Part shown: positions 1 to 11,321 of the stretch, in pieces
How positions within the stretch are numbered: position 1 is the first letter of the stretch
Layout of the letters: each line of letters begins with the position of its first letter
Assembly (NCBI GenBank): GCA_040225955.1
Contig: JBECUL010000048.1
Coordinates: forward strand, 1 to 16,425
DNA: 16,425 nt
Direction: 5' to 3'
Source of the DNA: Candidatus Asgardarchaeum abyssi
Lineage (GTDB): Archaea > Asgardarchaeota > Asgardarchaeia > Asgardarchaeales > Asgardarchaeaceae
Notes under the pieces: generated by a model
Databases searched by the model: none
Told to the model about the DNA's origin: nothing
What the model saw: only the letters and a program-made list of their open reading frames with translations
Translations under genes and position numbers: made by a program

Positions 1-2014
1 ATAAATATTTGAAACTGTCAATAGTAAGAATTTTAGCCAAGCGTTTATTCAAAACTGCTACAATATCGCCCACATATTCTGAGGGAGTGGTAATTTCAAG
101 CTTTTGCCAAGGTTCCAATAAGGTTGGTTCACTCTCAAGAATTAAAGTCTTTACTTCACTGAAGACCTCATTTAATTCTATCAAATCTATTTTGTCAGTG
201 GGTAATAAAGAGCCGAATTCGGATATTTCAATAAGAATTCCATAACAAGGTTCTCCTACCAGCGGTCCTTTTTGAAGTATGAGATCTATAGTTGTTTTTA
301 TTTGTGGATATAAAGCTTCCGGTACAGTCTCTGAGTTATCAATAACTATGTTCTTATATTTTGGATTATAACCAATGATTGTTCCTTTCTCTAAAATTCC
401 ACATTCGCTAAGTATTTTTCTTATATCACCCGCTCTCTGAGATTCTATTTTTTGAATAAAACACTCATTTAAAGGAAGTACTCTGTATGTAAACTTTGTT
501 CCTTCTTTAGTTTCTTTACTGAGAAATCTACTTGATCTTAAAATACCTTCGCGATATAATACTATTGGACGACCTACCTCTACATATATGCCGGCTCTTT
601 GGAGTTTTTGTAAGAATATTTCTATTTGCAATTCACCCATCCCAGAAAGTAGCATTTCACCAGTATCTTTATTTATTGAAAATTCGATACCTGGTTCGGT
701 TTTAGCGAACTGCGAGATCATCTGCTGAACATAGTCATACTGTGAAAAATCAACAGGTTCTATAGATACCGTAACCACAGGTTCGGACACATAGCGTAAT
801 CTTTCAAATGGTTCAATATTTTTAAGTTCCGGAGAGACTATTGTTTCACCTACAATTATATCTTTAATACCTATAAAGACTACATGATTACCAGAAGAGA
901 CTTCACGTACTGGAATTTTTGATTTACCTATCACTACAGCAAGTTGATTAACTATGAAATCGTTTCCAGCATGAACCATATGTAATGCCTGTTTAACTTT
1001 TATTGTACCAGAAAAAACACGACCGGTGGCAATGAAACCGGCTTTTAAATCGTATTTAACATCATAAATGAATACAACAGGGGGCGCGTTTAAATCGCAC
1101 TCTATTAGAGCTTTTCCTATCTCTGAGGATAAATCCCCTTGCCAGATAATTGGAATTCTGGCCTTTTGAGCTTCTCGAGGATTTGGGATATGATCAATTA
1201 TCATCTCTAACACTGCTTTTCCGACAGGAAATCTTTCTGATAACTCCTTTACATTATTTTCTTTATATTGTGAATATACATATTTTAAGAAATCTTTTAA
1301 TATTTGTAAGAGCTCACTTGTTGATTTAACATCATTAATGGATTTTCCAGCCCATTCTAGAATATCTATCAAACGTACGCCCCATTTATCTTTCGCCGAG
1401 CCGAAAGCCACATTAAGTCTTAAAAAGGATACTCTCCAATTTTCTGATATTTTACTTTCTGAATACTTTTCTAATAAGATATTAAAGTTTCTAACAATAT
1501 CATTGATAGCTTTTAAAAAATCATCAGGATTTAGTCTCTTTTCCTTAATTAAGCGGTCTACTTTATTTATAAATAATACAGGTTTTACATATTCGCTCAG
1601 TGCTTGTCTTGTTACAGTCTCTGTTTGAACCATAACACCTTCAATGGCATCAATGACTACAAGAGCTCCATCTGAAGCTCTTAAACTACGTGTAACATAT
1701 CCAGAGAAATCTATGTGACCAGGTGTATCTATTAAGTTTATTATATATTCTTGTCCTTTGTATATATAGTGAATCACAGCATTTGCAGCTTTTATTGTTA
1801 TACCACGAGTTTGTTCAATCTGATCATAATCTAAATATCTAAGTTCAGAAGCTAACTTCTTTGAAATGAGACCTGATGCAGCTAATAAAGAATCACTCAA
1901 CGTTGTTTTCCCGTGGTCTATATGAGCAATTATAGTAACATTTCGAATGTTCTCTATGTTTTTCATTATAGGTAAGACCTTTTGCGTTATATATTTTCTA
2001 AAGAGGTGAGACAA
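1..2014 (-). CDS. Translation elongation factor 2 family GTPase, divergent paralog (aEF-2p-like); 3' end beyond the window
   Basis: Not in the ORF track. Manual translation is open for 671 codons: IRNVTIIAHIDHGKTTLSD (G1), EQTRGITIK (G2), NLIDTPGHIDF (G3), FINKVD (G4), AFGSA (G5), HIPNPREAQKARIPIIWQGD, GRVFSGT (domain II), EPVVTVSIEP and SGMGELQIE (domain III), GPLVGEP and PTLLEP (domains IV/V). The start is TTG at 2014 (the N-terminus RKYITQKVLPIMKN resembles archaeal EF-2) or ATG at 1966. Confidence 0.95.
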   Translation of the reverse strand, partial: MSHLFRKYITQKVLPIMKNIENIRNVTIIAHIDHGKTTLSDSLLAASGLISKKLASELRYLDYDQIEQTRGITIKAANAVIHYIYKGQEYIINLIDTPGHIDFSGYVTRSLRASDGALVVIDAIEGVMVQTETVTRQALSEYVKPVLFINKVDRLIKEKRLNPDDFLKAINDIVRNFNILLEKYSESKISENWRVSFLRLNVAFGSAKDKWGVRLIDILEWAGKSINDVKSTSELLQILKDFLKYVYSQYKENNVKELSERFPVGKAVLEMIIDHIPNPREAQKARIPIIWQGDLSSEIGKALIECDLNAPPVVFIYDVKYDLKAGFIATGRVFSGTIKVKQALHMVHAGNDFIVNQLAVVIGKSKIPVREVSSGNHVVFIGIKDIIVGETIVSPELKNIEPFERLRYVSEPVVTVSIEPVDFSQYDYVQQMISQFAKTEPGIEFSINKDTGEMLLSGMGELQIEIFLQKLQRAGIYVEVGRPIVLYREGILRSSRFLSKETKEGTKFTYRVLPLNECFIQKIESQRAGDIRKILSECGILEKGTIIGYNPKYKNIVIDNSETVPEALYPQIKTTIDLILQKGPLVGEPCYGILIEISEFGSLLPTDKIDLIELNEVFSEVKTLILESEPTLLEPWQKLEITTPSEYVGDIVAVLNKRLAKILTIDSFKYL

Positions 2015-2019
2015 TGGGG

Positions 2020-2610
2020 TTACCCCCTCAGTTTATTACGTTCATTCTCCAAAAGCTTTGCTAACTCTCTTACTATAGGCATCTCAGCATTCTTTAATTC
2101 ATTTAAGTCTTCCCAAAATTCATCTAAATTCTCTTTACGAATTCCACTTCTTTCATAAGTTAATGCTTGAAAGAGCATATCAAGGATATCAGAGTATCTT
2201 ACAATCTTGGATTCAATTGATTTTTCTTCTATAAGTTCGTTCCAAAGAGAATCCAAATCCTCTATGGGAAATTTACTAAATATTTCTGAAACTATCTTTT
2301 GTTCTGTTTTTATTTTATGATCCTTACCTATGTACCTTATGGCAGTATAATTTAGATCTTGGAGCTTGCTTTCAGCAATATCATGAATTAGTGCAAGTTC
2401 AATGGTTTTCTTAACATCTACGTCGTACCCATTCTTTTTAGAATACTCAGCAATTAACATTGATATCAAGGCCACACGAAAGCTGTGATCAGCTACACTC
2501 TCAACATCACATATAGGGACATTAGAAACTATCCAGCCGTACCGTGGCACACGCTTTAGTATCCCAGCAAGAGTAATTAATTCGAATATTTTAGTGGCTT
2601 CATCTGTCAA
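2020..2610 (-). CDS. HD-domain phosphohydrolase, YfbR/HDDC2-like 5'-deoxynucleotidase family
   Basis: LKRVPRYGW, ESVADHSFR, LIHDIAE and a later D (YSDILD) match the family pattern; 196 aa; TTG start. Confidence 0.88.
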   Translation of the reverse strand: MTDEATKIFELITLAGILKRVPRYGWIVSNVPICDVESVADHSFRVALISMLIAEYSKKNGYDVDVKKTIELALIHDIAESKLQDLNYTAIRYIGKDHKIKTEQKIVSEIFSKFPIEDLDSLWNELIEEKSIESKIVRYSDILDMLFQALTYERSGIRKENLDEFWEDLNELKNAEMPIVRELAKLLENERNKLRG

Positions 2611-2681: not shown

Positions 2682-2698
2682 GTTAACGAGTGATCCAA

Positions 2699-4063
2699 AT
2701 GGCAGAGATTACAATTGATTATCCTAATTTTCGATTTAATGACTTTATAAAAGTTCTTAAAGACAAAGTTAGAAAACTGGACTGGGCTATTATAGAGGAC
2801 TCCGAGGAAATACTTGATAGAAAATTTTCATTTGCAGCAACAAAGCATGGCGATTTAGTTGTCTTTACAGGGATACATGATATTGGTGAGGGATATAATA
2901 GAATAAAGATATTCATAATGGTTGATTTAAAAGCAATAAAGGCGACAATGACCGCCTTAGATGTAGGTACAAAGGTTTTAACAGCATTGGGAATAATAGC
3001 AACTGGTACAATAGGTTTTGCAGTAGCTGCTGGTAAATTTACATTCTCTAAGATACTGAATTTTAAAAAGAAAAAGGACTTAGAGAACTTCTGGAAGAAT
3101 GTTATTAAGGAGATTTTAGAAAAGGACTTAGAATATAAAGGATTATTAATCGAAGACTATGAAATAGGGCTTCCACAAATCAGTGATGAAGAAAGACTCT
3201 ATTGGAATAATGTTTATAAATCATACTTGGATTTACTCGAAATGAAACTAAGAAGAAAGCTTGTAAGTATGGCATTATGGGACGCAGGGAATAAAAAAGC
3301 TGATTCCAAAAGGAAAGAACCAAATGTCATGATTTATAGAGATAGATTATTTAGAGATGGAATTGTGGATATAGTTGGTTACGCAAAGCTTAAAGATGCT
3401 ATCCAGATGGTTTTTGTCTTTACGAATAGGAAGCCAACAGCAACCCCATTTACATTAGAAGAAATAGCATCTATCCTTAGAGGGGCCGATAGCTATGCTC
3501 ATTTTAAATTTGCGAATGAACAAAAACCAATTCAAACCACATGTATATTTATCTCTGCAACAACACCACCCTTCAGTCAGGATATCTGCAATTTCATTGA
3601 AACAAATTACTATGTCGTAGGAGATTTGGATAGCAAAGTTCCACTAATTTTCCTGATACCTCCTCTCGAAAAGAAAGTAGAAGAAAGAAAAAGAGTCGGC
3701 GAAAAAATGCCTTTTGGTGAAATGCTTGAAGGCATAATTCAGAAAGGCTTAGAGATTTTTTCAGGTATAGCTAAAGAAAGTATTTGGCACAATATCTACA
3801 GACCCTCAAAATACTCAATGCTTATATCAAAAATCAATAAAATACCGTTCTCAAATTTCTTAAAAATACCAGTTATGGAGGATGACACGCTTAAATATAG
3901 CTATGAGGGGCCTATAACAATAGAGAAATATCAACAGATAGTTGATAGATTTTTATTTGAGTGGGAAAATCTTCTAACACCACACACGGCTGCAAGGTAT
4001 CTTAATTTACAAAAGTTCTATGAGGCAAAATCCTTTGTCGAAGCTCAATTAAATTATGAATAA
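2699..4063 (+). CDS. Hypothetical protein with an N-terminal hydrophobic segment and a possible degenerate Mrr-like PD-(D/E)XK fold
   Basis: Long ORF filling the gap. ATG 2699 is preferred over the track's GTG 2690 because GAGTGAT then serves as the SD. The Gly/Ala-rich hydrophobic stretch is VLTALGIIATGTIGFAVAAG. The fold call is pattern-based only. Confidence 0.75.
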   Translation: MAEITIDYPNFRFNDFIKVLKDKVRKLDWAIIEDSEEILDRKFSFAATKHGDLVVFTGIHDIGEGYNRIKIFIMVDLKAIKATMTALDVGTKVLTALGIIATGTIGFAVAAGKFTFSKILNFKKKKDLENFWKNVIKEILEKDLEYKGLLIEDYEIGLPQISDEERLYWNNVYKSYLDLLEMKLRRKLVSMALWDAGNKKADSKRKEPNVMIYRDRLFRDGIVDIVGYAKLKDAIQMVFVFTNRKPTATPFTLEEIASILRGADSYAHFKFANEQKPIQTTCIFISATTPPFSQDICNFIETNYYVVGDLDSKVPLIFLIPPLEKKVEERKRVGEKMPFGEMLEGIIQKGLEIFSGIAKESIWHNIYRPSKYSMLISKINKIPFSNFLKIPVMEDDTLKYSYEGPITIEKYQQIVDRFLFEWENLLTPHTAARYLNLQKFYEAKSFVEAQLNYE

Positions 4064-4140: not shown

Positions 4141-5385
4141 ATGACAGAAAGATTATTTTTAGATAACGCATATCTGTTTAAATGCTCTGCGAAAGTGAGA
4201 ATGTTGAACATAAGAGAAGACGGGAAACTGGAGCTAATATTGAATAGGACAATATTTCATCCTAAAGGAAGTGGACAAATTAATGATATAGGATACATTA
4301 GAAGTGCCTCCTTTGAGGGGAAAGTTATCGATGTTGTAGAAGAGGGAGAAGATATCGTTCATGTGGTGGAAATTCTGAGAGGAGAAGCAAAAGAGAATGA
4401 TACAGTAGAGTGTGAAATTGATAGGAATAGAAGATATGCAATAATGAGAGCTCATACAGGGGAACATATACTAGCAAGAGCTTTTAAGAAAATAATACCA
4501 AATTCTGAAATTAAAGGAGTTTACTTAGAAGAGGACAGAGGATATATTATTGTTTCGGGTATTTCTAAGGCTGAAATTTGGAATCAAATTTCAAGAGCAG
4601 AAGAAATAGCTAATAAAGTTATTTCTGAGGGAAGAAAGGTTACTGTTAAGTATTATGACTCTCTGAGTGAGGCTATGAAGCATTATGGAAATTCTTTAAG
4701 ATGCAGGCTTGAGGAATTCGAGGGAATTAGCAGAGTTCGGATAGTTGAAATTGACAAATATGATTATACAGCATGTTCAGGGACTCATGTCAGCAATACT
4801 ATAGAAGTTCGTTTTGTAAAAATTACTGGATATGAAAAATACGACAAGACTTCATATAAACTTAGATTTTCAACGGGAGAAATAGCATTAAAGAGTGCCA
4901 TTAGGTTATCAAATTTATTATTGGAGTTATCTAGGGAGTTATCTACAAGCGAAAATCTAGTTAAAGAGACCGTTAATAATCTAGTTCTAAAGATTAAAGA
5001 TTTAACAAAACACCTAAAAAGATTATCAGCGAGTTATGTGAGAGCTTTAATTAAAATACAAAGGATTGTACATAAAGACCTGAAAATGAATGAAATTGAA
5101 ATTGAATATAGTGATTTGGGTGATTTAATTAAAATTTTAAAAGATGAACAAATTTTTGATGATAAACTACTTTGGATTTTTAGCATAAGGAACCCTAAGT
5201 CAGCAATTATAATTTCTGGGAGGTCAATTGAGGATTTAAACTTTAAGTCTCTTCTAAGAACTTTACAAGAGAACATTAAAGACGTTGGTGGCGTGAAAAG
5301 AAAAGAATTCATTCTACTTAACTTCAAAGATCCTAATCAAATGAGTAAGGCTATTCTCTTAATAAAGAAAGAATTAGAGAAATAA
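4141..5385 (+). CDS. alaX: Free-standing alanyl-tRNA editing protein, long form (AlaX-L)
   Basis: TIFHPKGSGQINDIG glycine-rich motif, zinc ligands HTGEH and CSGTH, a C-terminal helical/C-Ala-like extension and no aminoacylation domain; SD AGGTGAT upstream. Confidence 0.9.
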   Translation: MTERLFLDNAYLFKCSAKVRMLNIREDGKLELILNRTIFHPKGSGQINDIGYIRSASFEGKVIDVVEEGEDIVHVVEILRGEAKENDTVECEIDRNRRYAIMRAHTGEHILARAFKKIIPNSEIKGVYLEEDRGYIIVSGISKAEIWNQISRAEEIANKVISEGRKVTVKYYDSLSEAMKHYGNSLRCRLEEFEGISRVRIVEIDKYDYTACSGTHVSNTIEVRFVKITGYEKYDKTSYKLRFSTGEIALKSAIRLSNLLLELSRELSTSENLVKETVNNLVLKIKDLTKHLKRLSASYVRALIKIQRIVHKDLKMNEIEIEYSDLGDLIKILKDEQIFDDKLLWIFSIRNPKSAIIISGRSIEDLNFKSLLRTLQENIKDVGGVKRKEFILLNFKDPNQMSKAILLIKKELEK

Positions 5386-9156: not shown

Positions 9157-11247
9157 TTACATAAATAGCATTATTATTGGGTTTAGGAACAATACTGCTA
9201 ACGTCAAAGCTATTATGTTTATTAACTTGACTAAGATATGCAATGATGGACCGCTAGTGTCCTTTAGTGGGTCGCCTACTGTATCGCCAACAACTGCAGC
9301 TTTATGCGTATCGCTTCCTTTTCCGCCAAAGACTCCCGTTTCTATATATTTCTTAGCATTATCCCAAGCTCCACCTGCATTAAACATGAAAATAGCTAAG
9401 ATTACTCCAGATACAGTTGCTGATAAAAGAAAAGCGCCTAATGTTTCTACGCCAAATAATATACCAACAATTATTGGGCTAATTATGCCTATAGCGCCTG
9501 GAATTAGCATGCCTTTTATTCCTGATTTGGTAGCTATATCAACTGCTTTGTCATATTCTGGTTTTGCAGTACCTTCTCTTAGCCCAGGTATTTCTCTAAA
9601 CTGTCTCCTTACTTCTTCTACTATTTTATGTGCAGCAACTCCTACAGCCTCTATAGCATATGCTGAGAATATATATGGAACTATACCTCCCAAGAAAAGA
9701 CCAAGTATTATTAAAGGCGATGCAAGATTTATGCTGAATCCAGGAACTCTAGAGGAAACGAGTTCAAGATAAGATGCAAAAAGCACGAATGCTGAAAGTG
9801 TTGCACATCCCATAGCATACCCTTTGGTTATCGCTTTTGTTGTATTGCCTATTGAATCCAGCATGTCTGTTATTCTGCGTACATCCTCTCCAAGACCAGC
9901 CATTTCTGCAATGCCGCCGGCATTATCTGTAATAGGCCCAAATGTATCAGAAGACATTATAATGCCGGTCATCGAGAGCATTCCTAGTGTTGCCATAGCA
10001 ATACCATAAAATCCTAGTTTGTGATCCACTAGCCCTCCAGATATAACATAGGATATAAGTATTGCTGCGGATAATATTATTAATGGCAAGCCAGTACTTT
10101 TCATACCAACGGCTAATCCAGTTATAATATTGGTAGCTGGACCTGTTTTTGCAGCTTCAGCTATCTGTTTAACTGGTTTGTATTTATAACTGGTGTAGTA
10201 TTGAATTAATAAACCAACAAGCACAGCTGCTGAGATTCCTATAACTATATCTATGAAGAAAACTATGTCGGCCCTAAGAAAAACAATAACTGATATGAAG
10301 AATAGTACTGCAGCAACTACACCCATTAGAATATAACCTACATTTATTGACATCATTGGGTCATCCTTTTTCACATATCCAACAGCAAGGATGCCTATAA
10401 TTGATGCAGTTATACCAATAGCACCTGCGATTAATGGGAATATAACTCCAGCAAATCCAAATGTTGCAGCTAAAGCTAATCCAAGAATCATCGTACCTAT
10501 ATTATTGTCAGTAAAAGATTCAAAGAGATCTGCGCCTCTTCCAGCACAATCACCAACATTATCACCGACAAGATCTGCAATTACTGCGGGATTCCTTGGA
10601 TCATCTTCTGGTATTCCTTCTTCTACTTTGCCGCTAATGTCTGCGCCAACATCAGCGCCCTTTGTATAAATACCTCCACCAAGCTGAGCAAACAGACCTA
10701 CAAGGCTGGCACCAAATCCAAAACTTATAATTAATTCAGGATCAGGAGTGCCAGAAAGCATCGAGTATGCATAGTATAGAATTGTTAAACATAGGATGCT
10801 AACGCTTGTAATGCCAAGTCCAGTAACAGCACCACCACGAAAAGCAATCTTTGTGGCTTCAGGAAGATCATGATTCCTAGCAGCTTCAGTGGTCCTCACA
10901 TGTGCGATTGTTGATATGCTCATGCCAACATATCCAGCTAAGGCAGATGCTGCAGAACCTAAGATGAACGCTAAAGCATAGTATGGCATGCCCCCATGAT
11001 ATATGAAATCATAAATATAAAGCCCCACTGCAATTATGACAGCTACAATTGCTATTGTAGAATTTTGCCTTCGTAGATAAGCTTTTGCGCCTATTCTTAT
11101 AGCCTCTGCTATCTCTCTCATTTTTTCAGTACCACTAGGTTTTTTCTTTATGTATGATATCAGATAGATAATAACACCTATCGCTACGAGACTAGTAAGC
11201 AATGGAATCCATAGGAACCACCAGTTTGGCTCTATTGATACTTCCAT
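9157..11247 (-). CDS. hppA: Membrane-bound ion-translocating pyrophosphatase, K+-independent H+-PPase type
   Basis: GGGIYTKGADVGAD..GKVE, EDDPRNPAVIADLVGDNVGD, GPITDNAGGIAEM, GNTTKA, GGAWDNAKK and GDTVGDPLKDTSGPS motifs. ATG 11247 is preferred because the track's GTG lies within the SD GAGGTG. Confidence 0.96.
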   Translation of the reverse strand: MEVSIEPNWWFLWIPLLTSLVAIGVIIYLISYIKKKPSGTEKMREIAEAIRIGAKAYLRRQNSTIAIVAVIIAVGLYIYDFIYHGGMPYYALAFILGSAASALAGYVGMSISTIAHVRTTEAARNHDLPEATKIAFRGGAVTGLGITSVSILCLTILYYAYSMLSGTPDPELIISFGFGASLVGLFAQLGGGIYTKGADVGADISGKVEEGIPEDDPRNPAVIADLVGDNVGDCAGRGADLFESFTDNNIGTMILGLALAATFGFAGVIFPLIAGAIGITASIIGILAVGYVKKDDPMMSINVGYILMGVVAAVLFFISVIVFLRADIVFFIDIVIGISAAVLVGLLIQYYTSYKYKPVKQIAEAAKTGPATNIITGLAVGMKSTGLPLIILSAAILISYVISGGLVDHKLGFYGIAMATLGMLSMTGIIMSSDTFGPITDNAGGIAEMAGLGEDVRRITDMLDSIGNTTKAITKGYAMGCATLSAFVLFASYLELVSSRVPGFSINLASPLIILGLFLGGIVPYIFSAYAIEAVGVAAHKIVEEVRRQFREIPGLREGTAKPEYDKAVDIATKSGIKGMLIPGAIGIISPIIVGILFGVETLGAFLLSATVSGVILAIFMFNAGGAWDNAKKYIETGVFGGKGSDTHKAAVVGDTVGDPLKDTSGPSLHILVKLINIIALTLAVLFLNPIIMLFM

Positions 11248-11321
11248 ATTACGCACCTCTCAATATGCTATGAAGTAATGAATCAAGGAATAACAGTAAC
11301 TTTTTTGCTAAATAAGAATAT

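Follow-up and report, generated by a model that had tools for sequence, protein, structure and literature searches.

We describe the gene at the left end of a 16,425-nucleotide stretch of DNA (contig JBECUL010000048.1, here contig C48) from the genome of Candidatus Asgardarchaeum abyssi, assembly GCA_040225955.1; the whole stretch that was analysed is referred to as the window. The gene encodes aEF-2p, a divergent paralog of elongation factor 2 (EF-2) in Asgard archaea, and its protein has lost the diphthamide loop at the tip of domain IV. This loop loss was already known because it is a defining trait of aEF-2p; the feature has been published and is not new. The host genome is a metagenome-assembled genome (MAG) of 2.6 Mb in 189 contigs, with an estimated completeness of 93.5% and contamination of 7.8%. 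The gene and its recognisable elements, listed from the start codon onwards, are as follows.

2..2014, minus strand: aEF-2p gene, codons 1–671 of the open frame; TTG start at 2014, truncated where it reaches the contig end (translation).
1904..1927, minus strand: G1 (P-loop) AHIDHGKT, residues 30–37; invariant in 19 aligned sequences.
1793–1807, minus strand: G2, RGITI (alignment).
1715..1729, minus strand: G3 (switch II) DTPGH, with the catalytic His100 (alignment).
1556–1567, minus strand: G4, NKVD (alignment).
1391–1402, minus strand: G5, GSAK (alignment).
125..562, minus strand: domain IV, residues 485–630; fold kept, sequence diverged (Pfam, AlphaFold2 model, ratio of non-synonymous to synonymous rates).
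491..520, minus strand: SKETKEGTKF, equivalent of the second tip loop (canonical SPHKHN; alignment to 8hl1).
248–268, minus strand: GPLVGEP, residues 583–589 (translation).
128..247, minus strand: rewritten stretch of 40 residues, 590–629 (translation).
185..211, minus strand: SLLPTDKID, residues 602–610, equivalent of the diphthamide loop (canonical HxDxxHRG; alignment).
110–127, minus strand: PTLLEP, residues 630–635 (translation).

The remaining 57 codons and the stop codon were located, in frame, on contig C75 of the same genome (L005 2–190), which brings the full length of the protein to 728 residues. The join between the two contigs is based on a 14-nucleotide overlap, tttcaaatatttat, and on the shared residues FKYL; the bases immediately inside the overlap disagree between C48 and C75 (window 1–30; L005 1–190). 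Both the join and the length are confirmed by P0002 (L007), a protein of 728 residues from an independent Logan assembly with 96% identity to the window protein and the same flanking genes, because it is full-length between the same two neighbours. At the other end of the gene, the N-terminus MSHL(F/Y)K is common to all homologs, and a Shine-Dalgarno-like run GAGGGGG stands immediately 5′ of the TTG start.

The protein belongs to the EF-2 family with its GTPase motifs kept, and the predicted structure indicates that the five-domain EF-2 fold is kept as well. All five motifs G1–G5 are intact and invariant in the 19-sequence alignment. Pfam matches cover GTP_EFTU, domain 2, EFG_III and the start of EFG_C, and no match to EFG_IV was found in the window protein at E≤0.01; in the full-length P0002, EFG_IV reaches 13 bits (cut-off 24). 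The NCBIfam equivalog model of archaeal EF-2 (aEF-2), TIGR00490, is by far the top-scoring model, with 531.5 bits against a cut-off of 738.45, and the closest solved proteins found with HMMER are archaeal EF-2s, led by that of Sulfolobus (8hl1, 4e-136). The AlphaFold2 model, built from the 19-sequence alignment, has a mean pLDDT (predicted local distance difference test) of 86 and a whole-protein TM-score (template modelling score) of 0.82 to the aEF-2 of Methanoperedens (M. nitroreducens, 6u43). The window protein thus resembles canonical aEF-2 (TIGR00490; 8hl1 of Sulfolobus, 5h7j of Pyrococcus, 6u43 of Methanoperedens) in length, in its five domains and in its GTPase centre, with 33–39% identity over structural alignments, but it differs in having no diphthamide histidine, no SPHKHN loop and no EFG_IV signature. 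With a TIGR00490 score below the equivalog cut-off and no histidine in domain IV, it is not a canonical aEF-2.

The change in domain IV had been recognised in a first-pass annotation as 40 residues between GPLVGEP and PTLLEP that contain neither histidine nor arginine and have an acidic bias. The stretch reads exactly as quoted there, with no His, no Arg, nine acidic and two basic residues. The missing His and Arg are by themselves weak evidence, because the composition of the 671 residues (9 His and 29 Arg) gives a chance of about 10% that any 40 residues contain neither; the weight is carried by the alignment. In the HMMER alignment SLLPTDKID lies opposite HEDPAHRGP of the Sulfolobus aEF-2, and since a single 1-residue indel separates the two, the spacing is preserved. 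The position of the diphthamide histidine is taken by Asp607 according to HMMER and by Lys608 according to MAFFT. The second loop at the tip is rewritten in the same way: KSPNKHNKL of 8hl1 lines up with KETKEGTKF, such that SPNKHN of Sulfolobus is replaced by ETKEGT. In the AlphaFold2 model, a strand (593–601), a loop (602–610) and a helix (611–627) reproduce the canonical layout around the diphthamide loop. The earlier description of a surface rewrite at kept spacing, as opposed to a deletion, is borne out by the alignment and by the predicted fold, and with no histidine at the diphthamide position the protein cannot be diphthamidated, as had been said.

Two trivial explanations of the missing histidine were considered. 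A displaced equivalent elsewhere in domain IV is ruled out: the last histidine of the window protein is residue 377, and domains III–V hold none within the window. A compensated frameshift or an assembly error is likewise rejected, since the other two reading frames of the loop region are full of stops and the same loop occurs in independent assemblies; the tip loop of P0002 is identical to that of the window protein. In P0003 (L008, L009; 65% identity) the loop is of equal length and also without His. Among the relatives compared, a histidine at the diphthamide position is found in none of the eight members of the clade of the window protein and in none of the 11 members from Thorarchaeota and Lokiarchaeota (Thor/Loki).

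The loss of the diphthamide loop has to be read together with the rest of the genome, and this paralog context was overlooked in the first-pass annotation. According to Narrowe et al. 2018 (Genome Biol Evol, PMC6143161), aEF-2p occurs in Asgard archaea, marine Korarchaeota (Kor 1/3) and some Bathyarchaeota; its motifs G1–G5 are conserved and HxDxxHRG, including the histidine, and SPHKHN are not. The same paper reports that dph genes are missing in most Asgard archaea, and that their aEF-2 keeps the target histidine with R702 replaced by Thr. Six testable traits of aEF-2p can be taken from that study, and all six are found in the window protein or its genome: 1) an EF-2 fold with G1–G5, 2) HxDxxHRG not conserved, 3) SPHKHN not conserved, 4) a companion aEF-2 with the target His and R702T, 5) no match to dph1/2, dph5 and dph6 and 6) grouping with aEF-2p. 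Eme et al. 2023 (PMC10307638) restate the presence of aEF-2p for all Asgard archaea other than Hodarchaeales, the one group among them that retains dph genes and has a single canonical EF-2.

The companion EF-2 is encoded on another contig of the same genome (G000:C96; L001 1333–3729, minus strand). It is 798 residues long, scores 610 bits, keeps the target histidine in a tip that reads VHEDPAHTRAGQ (the HEDPAHT form, R702T), has a domain IV that matches Pfam EFG_IV with 51.8 bits, and would be the translocase of the cell. In a search of the host genome (93.5% complete), no match was found to dph2 (PF01866), dph5 (TIGR00522) or dph6 (PF01902); the search matched in four of four archaeal controls. 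Resistance of the window protein to diphthamide-specific toxins, which had been predicted earlier, is moot because these three dph genes were not found. The three contigs C48, C75 and C96 are alike in GC content (0.32–0.35).

Several peculiarities of the C96 protein are worth recording. Its tip, HEDPAHTRAGQ, has an Arg where most aEF-2 carry Gly703, and it is unusually long, with an insert of about 16 residues after LWQGDI and a C-terminal tail of about 35 residues past the end of the aEF-2 model. Open frames of about 800 residues are found in two further families of the phylum as well (f11 and f15). The C96 gene does not adjoin ribosomal protein genes.

The phylogenetic placement was obtained from 73 archaeal-length EF-2-family proteins with FastTree and Shimodaira-Hasegawa-like (SH-like) support, a quick method whose deep nodes are not reliable. 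The window protein falls into a clade of eight sequences (support 99) that is sister to Thor/Loki aEF-2p, the two forming one clade with a joint support of 100, and the EF-2 of C96 is placed among the EF-2s with a His loop. The subclade of the window protein is separate from Thor/Loki aEF-2p, with about 40% identity between them, and two of its members are named Asgardarchaeia by NCBI; one homolog, from an Asgardarchaeia MAG, covers 65% of the query with 100% identity. The two groups also differ in domain IV, where the window subclade has about 30 extra residues, and at the tip itself: Thor/Loki aEF-2p share PETSWRD(I/V)TQP, whereas in the window subclade the tip varies and (I/V)(S/D)L(L/I) comes after it. 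The name of the class Asgardarchaeia dates from Eme et al. 2023 (PMC10307638) and Tamarit et al. 2024, later than the 2018 paper on aEF-2p. What the present analysis adds is that aEF-2p of the Asgardarchaeia type forms a subclade of its own, with a drifting tip as opposed to the conserved tip of Thor/Loki.

The presence of two EF-2s is common in the phylum. Most of the 121 same-phylum genomes that were sampled, closed single-contig ones included, have two strong EF-2 matches, and those with an EF-2 above the equivalog cut-off mostly carry one. Apart from the window clade and Thor/Loki aEF-2p, the His loop is missing in 33 of the 73 archaeal-length representatives (P0122–P0269), and these 33 proteins are split into several separate, well-supported clades. 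EF-2 paralogs that lack the histidine therefore seem to be spread much more widely, and to be much more varied, than the two clades of aEF-2p described in 2018 suggest.

Selection on the gene is purifying, and in domain IV it is relaxed without being absent. Comparison with the 96%-identical protein shows 85 synonymous against 25 non-synonymous differences, corresponding to a ratio of non-synonymous to synonymous rates (dN/dS) of 0.07, by which a pseudogene is rejected; the G domain stands at 0.01, domain IV at 0.155 and the protein outside domain IV at 0.04. The mean pairwise identity within the window clade is 0.78 in the G domain, 0.50–0.57 in domains II, III and V, and 0.30 in domain IV, the lowest of any stretch of its length in the protein. 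Both tip loops are at the low end, with identities of 0.21–0.23 (4th and 9th percentile). Such low conservation of domain IV and its tip points towards relaxed constraint and away from a conserved interface of a new kind.

The acidic bias of the 40 residues had been taken as a sign that the rewritten surface might bind a protein. The net charge of −7 is limited to this species and its 96% relative, and the other six members of the clade range from −1 to +1; a conserved acidic surface is thereby ruled out. With the bias not conserved and domain IV the least conserved part of the protein in the clade, that suggestion did not hold up, although the rewrite itself did. In Thor/Loki aEF-2p domain IV is likewise the least conserved part, yet PETSWRD(I/V)TQP at the former diphthamide site is nearly invariant; the second tip loop is variable in both groups. 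On these sequence patterns, the aEF-2p family may not be functionally uniform.

The remaining genes that were considered in the window lie upstream of aEF-2p and beyond.

2020..2610, minus strand: HD-domain gene (YfbR-like 5′-deoxynucleotidase), upstream of aEF-2p; its stop lies 5 nucleotides before the aEF-2p start.
2690–4063, plus strand: gene of 457 codons with no Pfam match on record in relatives; divergent from the HD/aEF-2p pair.
4141–5385, plus strand: AlaX-like gene (tRNA-synt_2c and tRNA_SAD), after the 457-codon gene and also divergent from the HD/aEF-2p pair.
9157–11256, minus strand: frame of 699 codons resembling a membrane H+-translocating pyrophosphatase (sequence motifs by eye).
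9215–9772, plus strand: frame of 185 codons on the strand opposite to the 699-codon frame, probably a shadow open reading frame.

The HD gene and aEF-2p are probably co-transcribed, because the HD stop lies 5 nucleotides before the TTG and the GAGGGGG run precedes the start. Downstream of aEF-2p follows a gene for an Arf/Ras-like small GTPase of 238 residues (L005 284–1000). The HD gene, aEF-2p and the Arf/Ras-like GTPase gene occur together in the relatives at 96%, 65% and 49% identity, with different orientations at 49%, and the trio is missing in the relative at 47%. The order of the 457-codon gene and the AlaX-like gene is kept in the 96% and 65% relatives. On the Thorarchaeota-type contig (L012 4387–7094) and the Lokiarchaeota contig (L013 4049–6724), aEF-2p starts 5–6 nucleotides after a gene of about 200 codons for a hexapeptide-repeat (LbH) protein, and NrdD, a thymidylate synthase (ThyA) and an AsnC-type helix-turn-helix regulator are encoded upstream. 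Both settings, the one with the YfbR-like HD gene and the one with NrdD and ThyA, touch deoxynucleotide metabolism, which may be a coincidence. No ribosomal or translation gene recurs near aEF-2p among the window-clade and Thor/Loki loci compared, and for this reason we draw no functional inference from the neighbourhood.

Taken as a whole, the observations are very probably best explained by an aEF-2p of an Asgard archaeon without diphthamide synthesis, here a member of the class Asgardarchaeia, that acts as a ribosome-bound GTPase in an accessory capacity and not as the translocase. Conservation of domains I, II, III and V is the reason to predict that the protein binds the factor site of the ribosome and hydrolyses GTP there. 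It would be unable to couple this hydrolysis to the movement of tRNA and mRNA in the canonical manner, leaving it an accessory ribosomal role other than translocation. The most plausible tasks would be those at the level of the subunits for which a wedge driven by GTP is needed and a precise tip is not; examples could be freeing the 50S subunit of aIF6 in the way of EFL1, back-translocation or rescue. Our literature search found no demonstrated function of aEF-2p. Narrowe et al. 2018 (PMC6143161) likewise regarded aEF-2p as a non-translocase, with the Tet-type protection proteins as a comparison, and suggested back-translocation or regulation.

Precedents for such a role exist among the paralogs of the translational GTPases. 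The bacterial ribosomal protection proteins Tet(M)/Tet(O) and the EF-G paralogs LepA, BipA and EF-G2 all have a domain IV tip that was rewritten or lost and act on the ribosome without translocation. They belong to another branch of the superfamily, however, and the window protein scores 120–155 bits with the tet_protect models against cut-offs of 775–1100. EFL1/Ria1 is, as the window protein appears to be, a paralog of EF-2 that kept its GTPase and is not a translocase; the analogy would be one of function only, as the window protein is probably not its ortholog. In eukaryotes, the release of eIF6 from the pre-60S particle is carried out by the EF-2 paralog EFL1 together with SBDS. Genes for aIF6 and SBDS are present in the host genome; for EFL1 and aEF-2 alike, the contacts that matter here are made on the ribosome. 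In S. solfataricus, aEF-2 frees aIF6 from the 50S subunit in a GTPase-dependent manner (Lo Gullo et al. 2021, PMC8024482), and EFL1 and Snu114 lie inside the eukaryotic EF-2 clade, beside the EF-2 of Hodarchaeales (‘Heimdall LC3’; Narrowe et al. 2018, PMC6143161).

A number of points weigh against this account of an accessory ribosomal GTPase. The tree comes from FastTree with SH-like support only, and the deep placement of the aEF-2p clades was left unresolved in Narrowe et al. 2018 (PMC6143161). The GTPase activity and the ribosome binding of aEF-2p are deduced only from conservation. Genes for aIF6 and SBDS are found in nearly all archaea, and their presence does not single out an EFL1-like role, which would be a hypothesis by analogy with no specific support here. 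The conserved PETSWRD(I/V)TQP indicates that the tip of Thor/Loki aEF-2p may have a specific partner, a possibility that the picture of a wedge ignores. That dph genes were not found in an incomplete genome does not prove that they were lost. Finally, with an estimated contamination of 7.8%, the assignment of both EF-2s to one organism rests on the similar GC content and on relatives with two copies.

The same protein could instead work away from the ribosome, with the rewritten domain IV binding some other protein or RNA in the manner of Snu114. Eukaryotic EF-2 paralogs have indeed been recruited to machines outside translation, the AlphaFold2 model superposes on Snu114 chains with a TM-score of about 0.8, and two conserved neighbours, the HD hydrolase and the Arf/Ras-like GTPase, are non-ribosomal. 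We nevertheless consider this quite unlikely. A surface dedicated to a new partner would be expected to be conserved, and in the window clade domain IV and its tip loops are conserved least and the acidic bias not at all; conservation is found in domains I, II, III and V, with which EF-2 contacts the ribosome. The neighbourhood, moreover, is missing in one member of the clade and different in Thor/Loki.

It is very improbable that the window protein is the main translocase of the organism, in the form of an EF-2 able to work without the diphthamide tip, which was the implicit frame of the first-pass annotation. A full-length EF-2-family protein under selection and with an intact GTPase would fit such a function, but the protein on C96 has the His loop, scores higher as an aEF-2 and contains an EFG_IV domain that can be recognised, both loops that reach the decoding centre are lost in the window protein, and the latter groups with aEF-2p and not with the His-loop EF-2s. 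A decaying duplicate, or a loop created by an assembly or frameshift artefact, is scarcely credible and already largely refuted: the rate of change in domain IV is indeed about fourfold that of the remaining protein and the gene is cut by the contig end, but the 728-codon frame is open in independent assemblies, dN/dS is 0.07 overall and no higher than 0.155 in domain IV, the family is conserved across Asgard classes, the alternative frames are filled with stops and the missing C-terminus is found on C75.

As a discovery the loss of the diphthamide loop is of little weight, being a published hallmark of aEF-2p. The practical consequences concern annotation. Homologs are recorded as GTP-binding proteins of ‘Candidatus Asgardarchaeia’, Thorarchaeota, Lokiarchaeota and Promethearchaeota; NCBI calls them ‘GTP-binding protein’ and JGI (Joint Genome Institute) ‘elongation factor 2’. 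EF-2 is used as a single-copy marker, and the paralog therefore inflates estimates of contamination. With regard to the biology of the family, we put forward, as a tentative and rather doubtful proposal, that aEF-2p comprises two functional subfamilies: in Thor/Loki the conserved tip would serve a specific new contact, and in the Asgardarchaeia type the tip would be free, with constraint only on the GTPase and on domains II, III and V, and the protein would perform a steric job at the level of the subunits, such as the eviction of aIF6. If true, archaea would have arrived on their own at the division of labour that eukaryotes show between EF-2 and EFL1.

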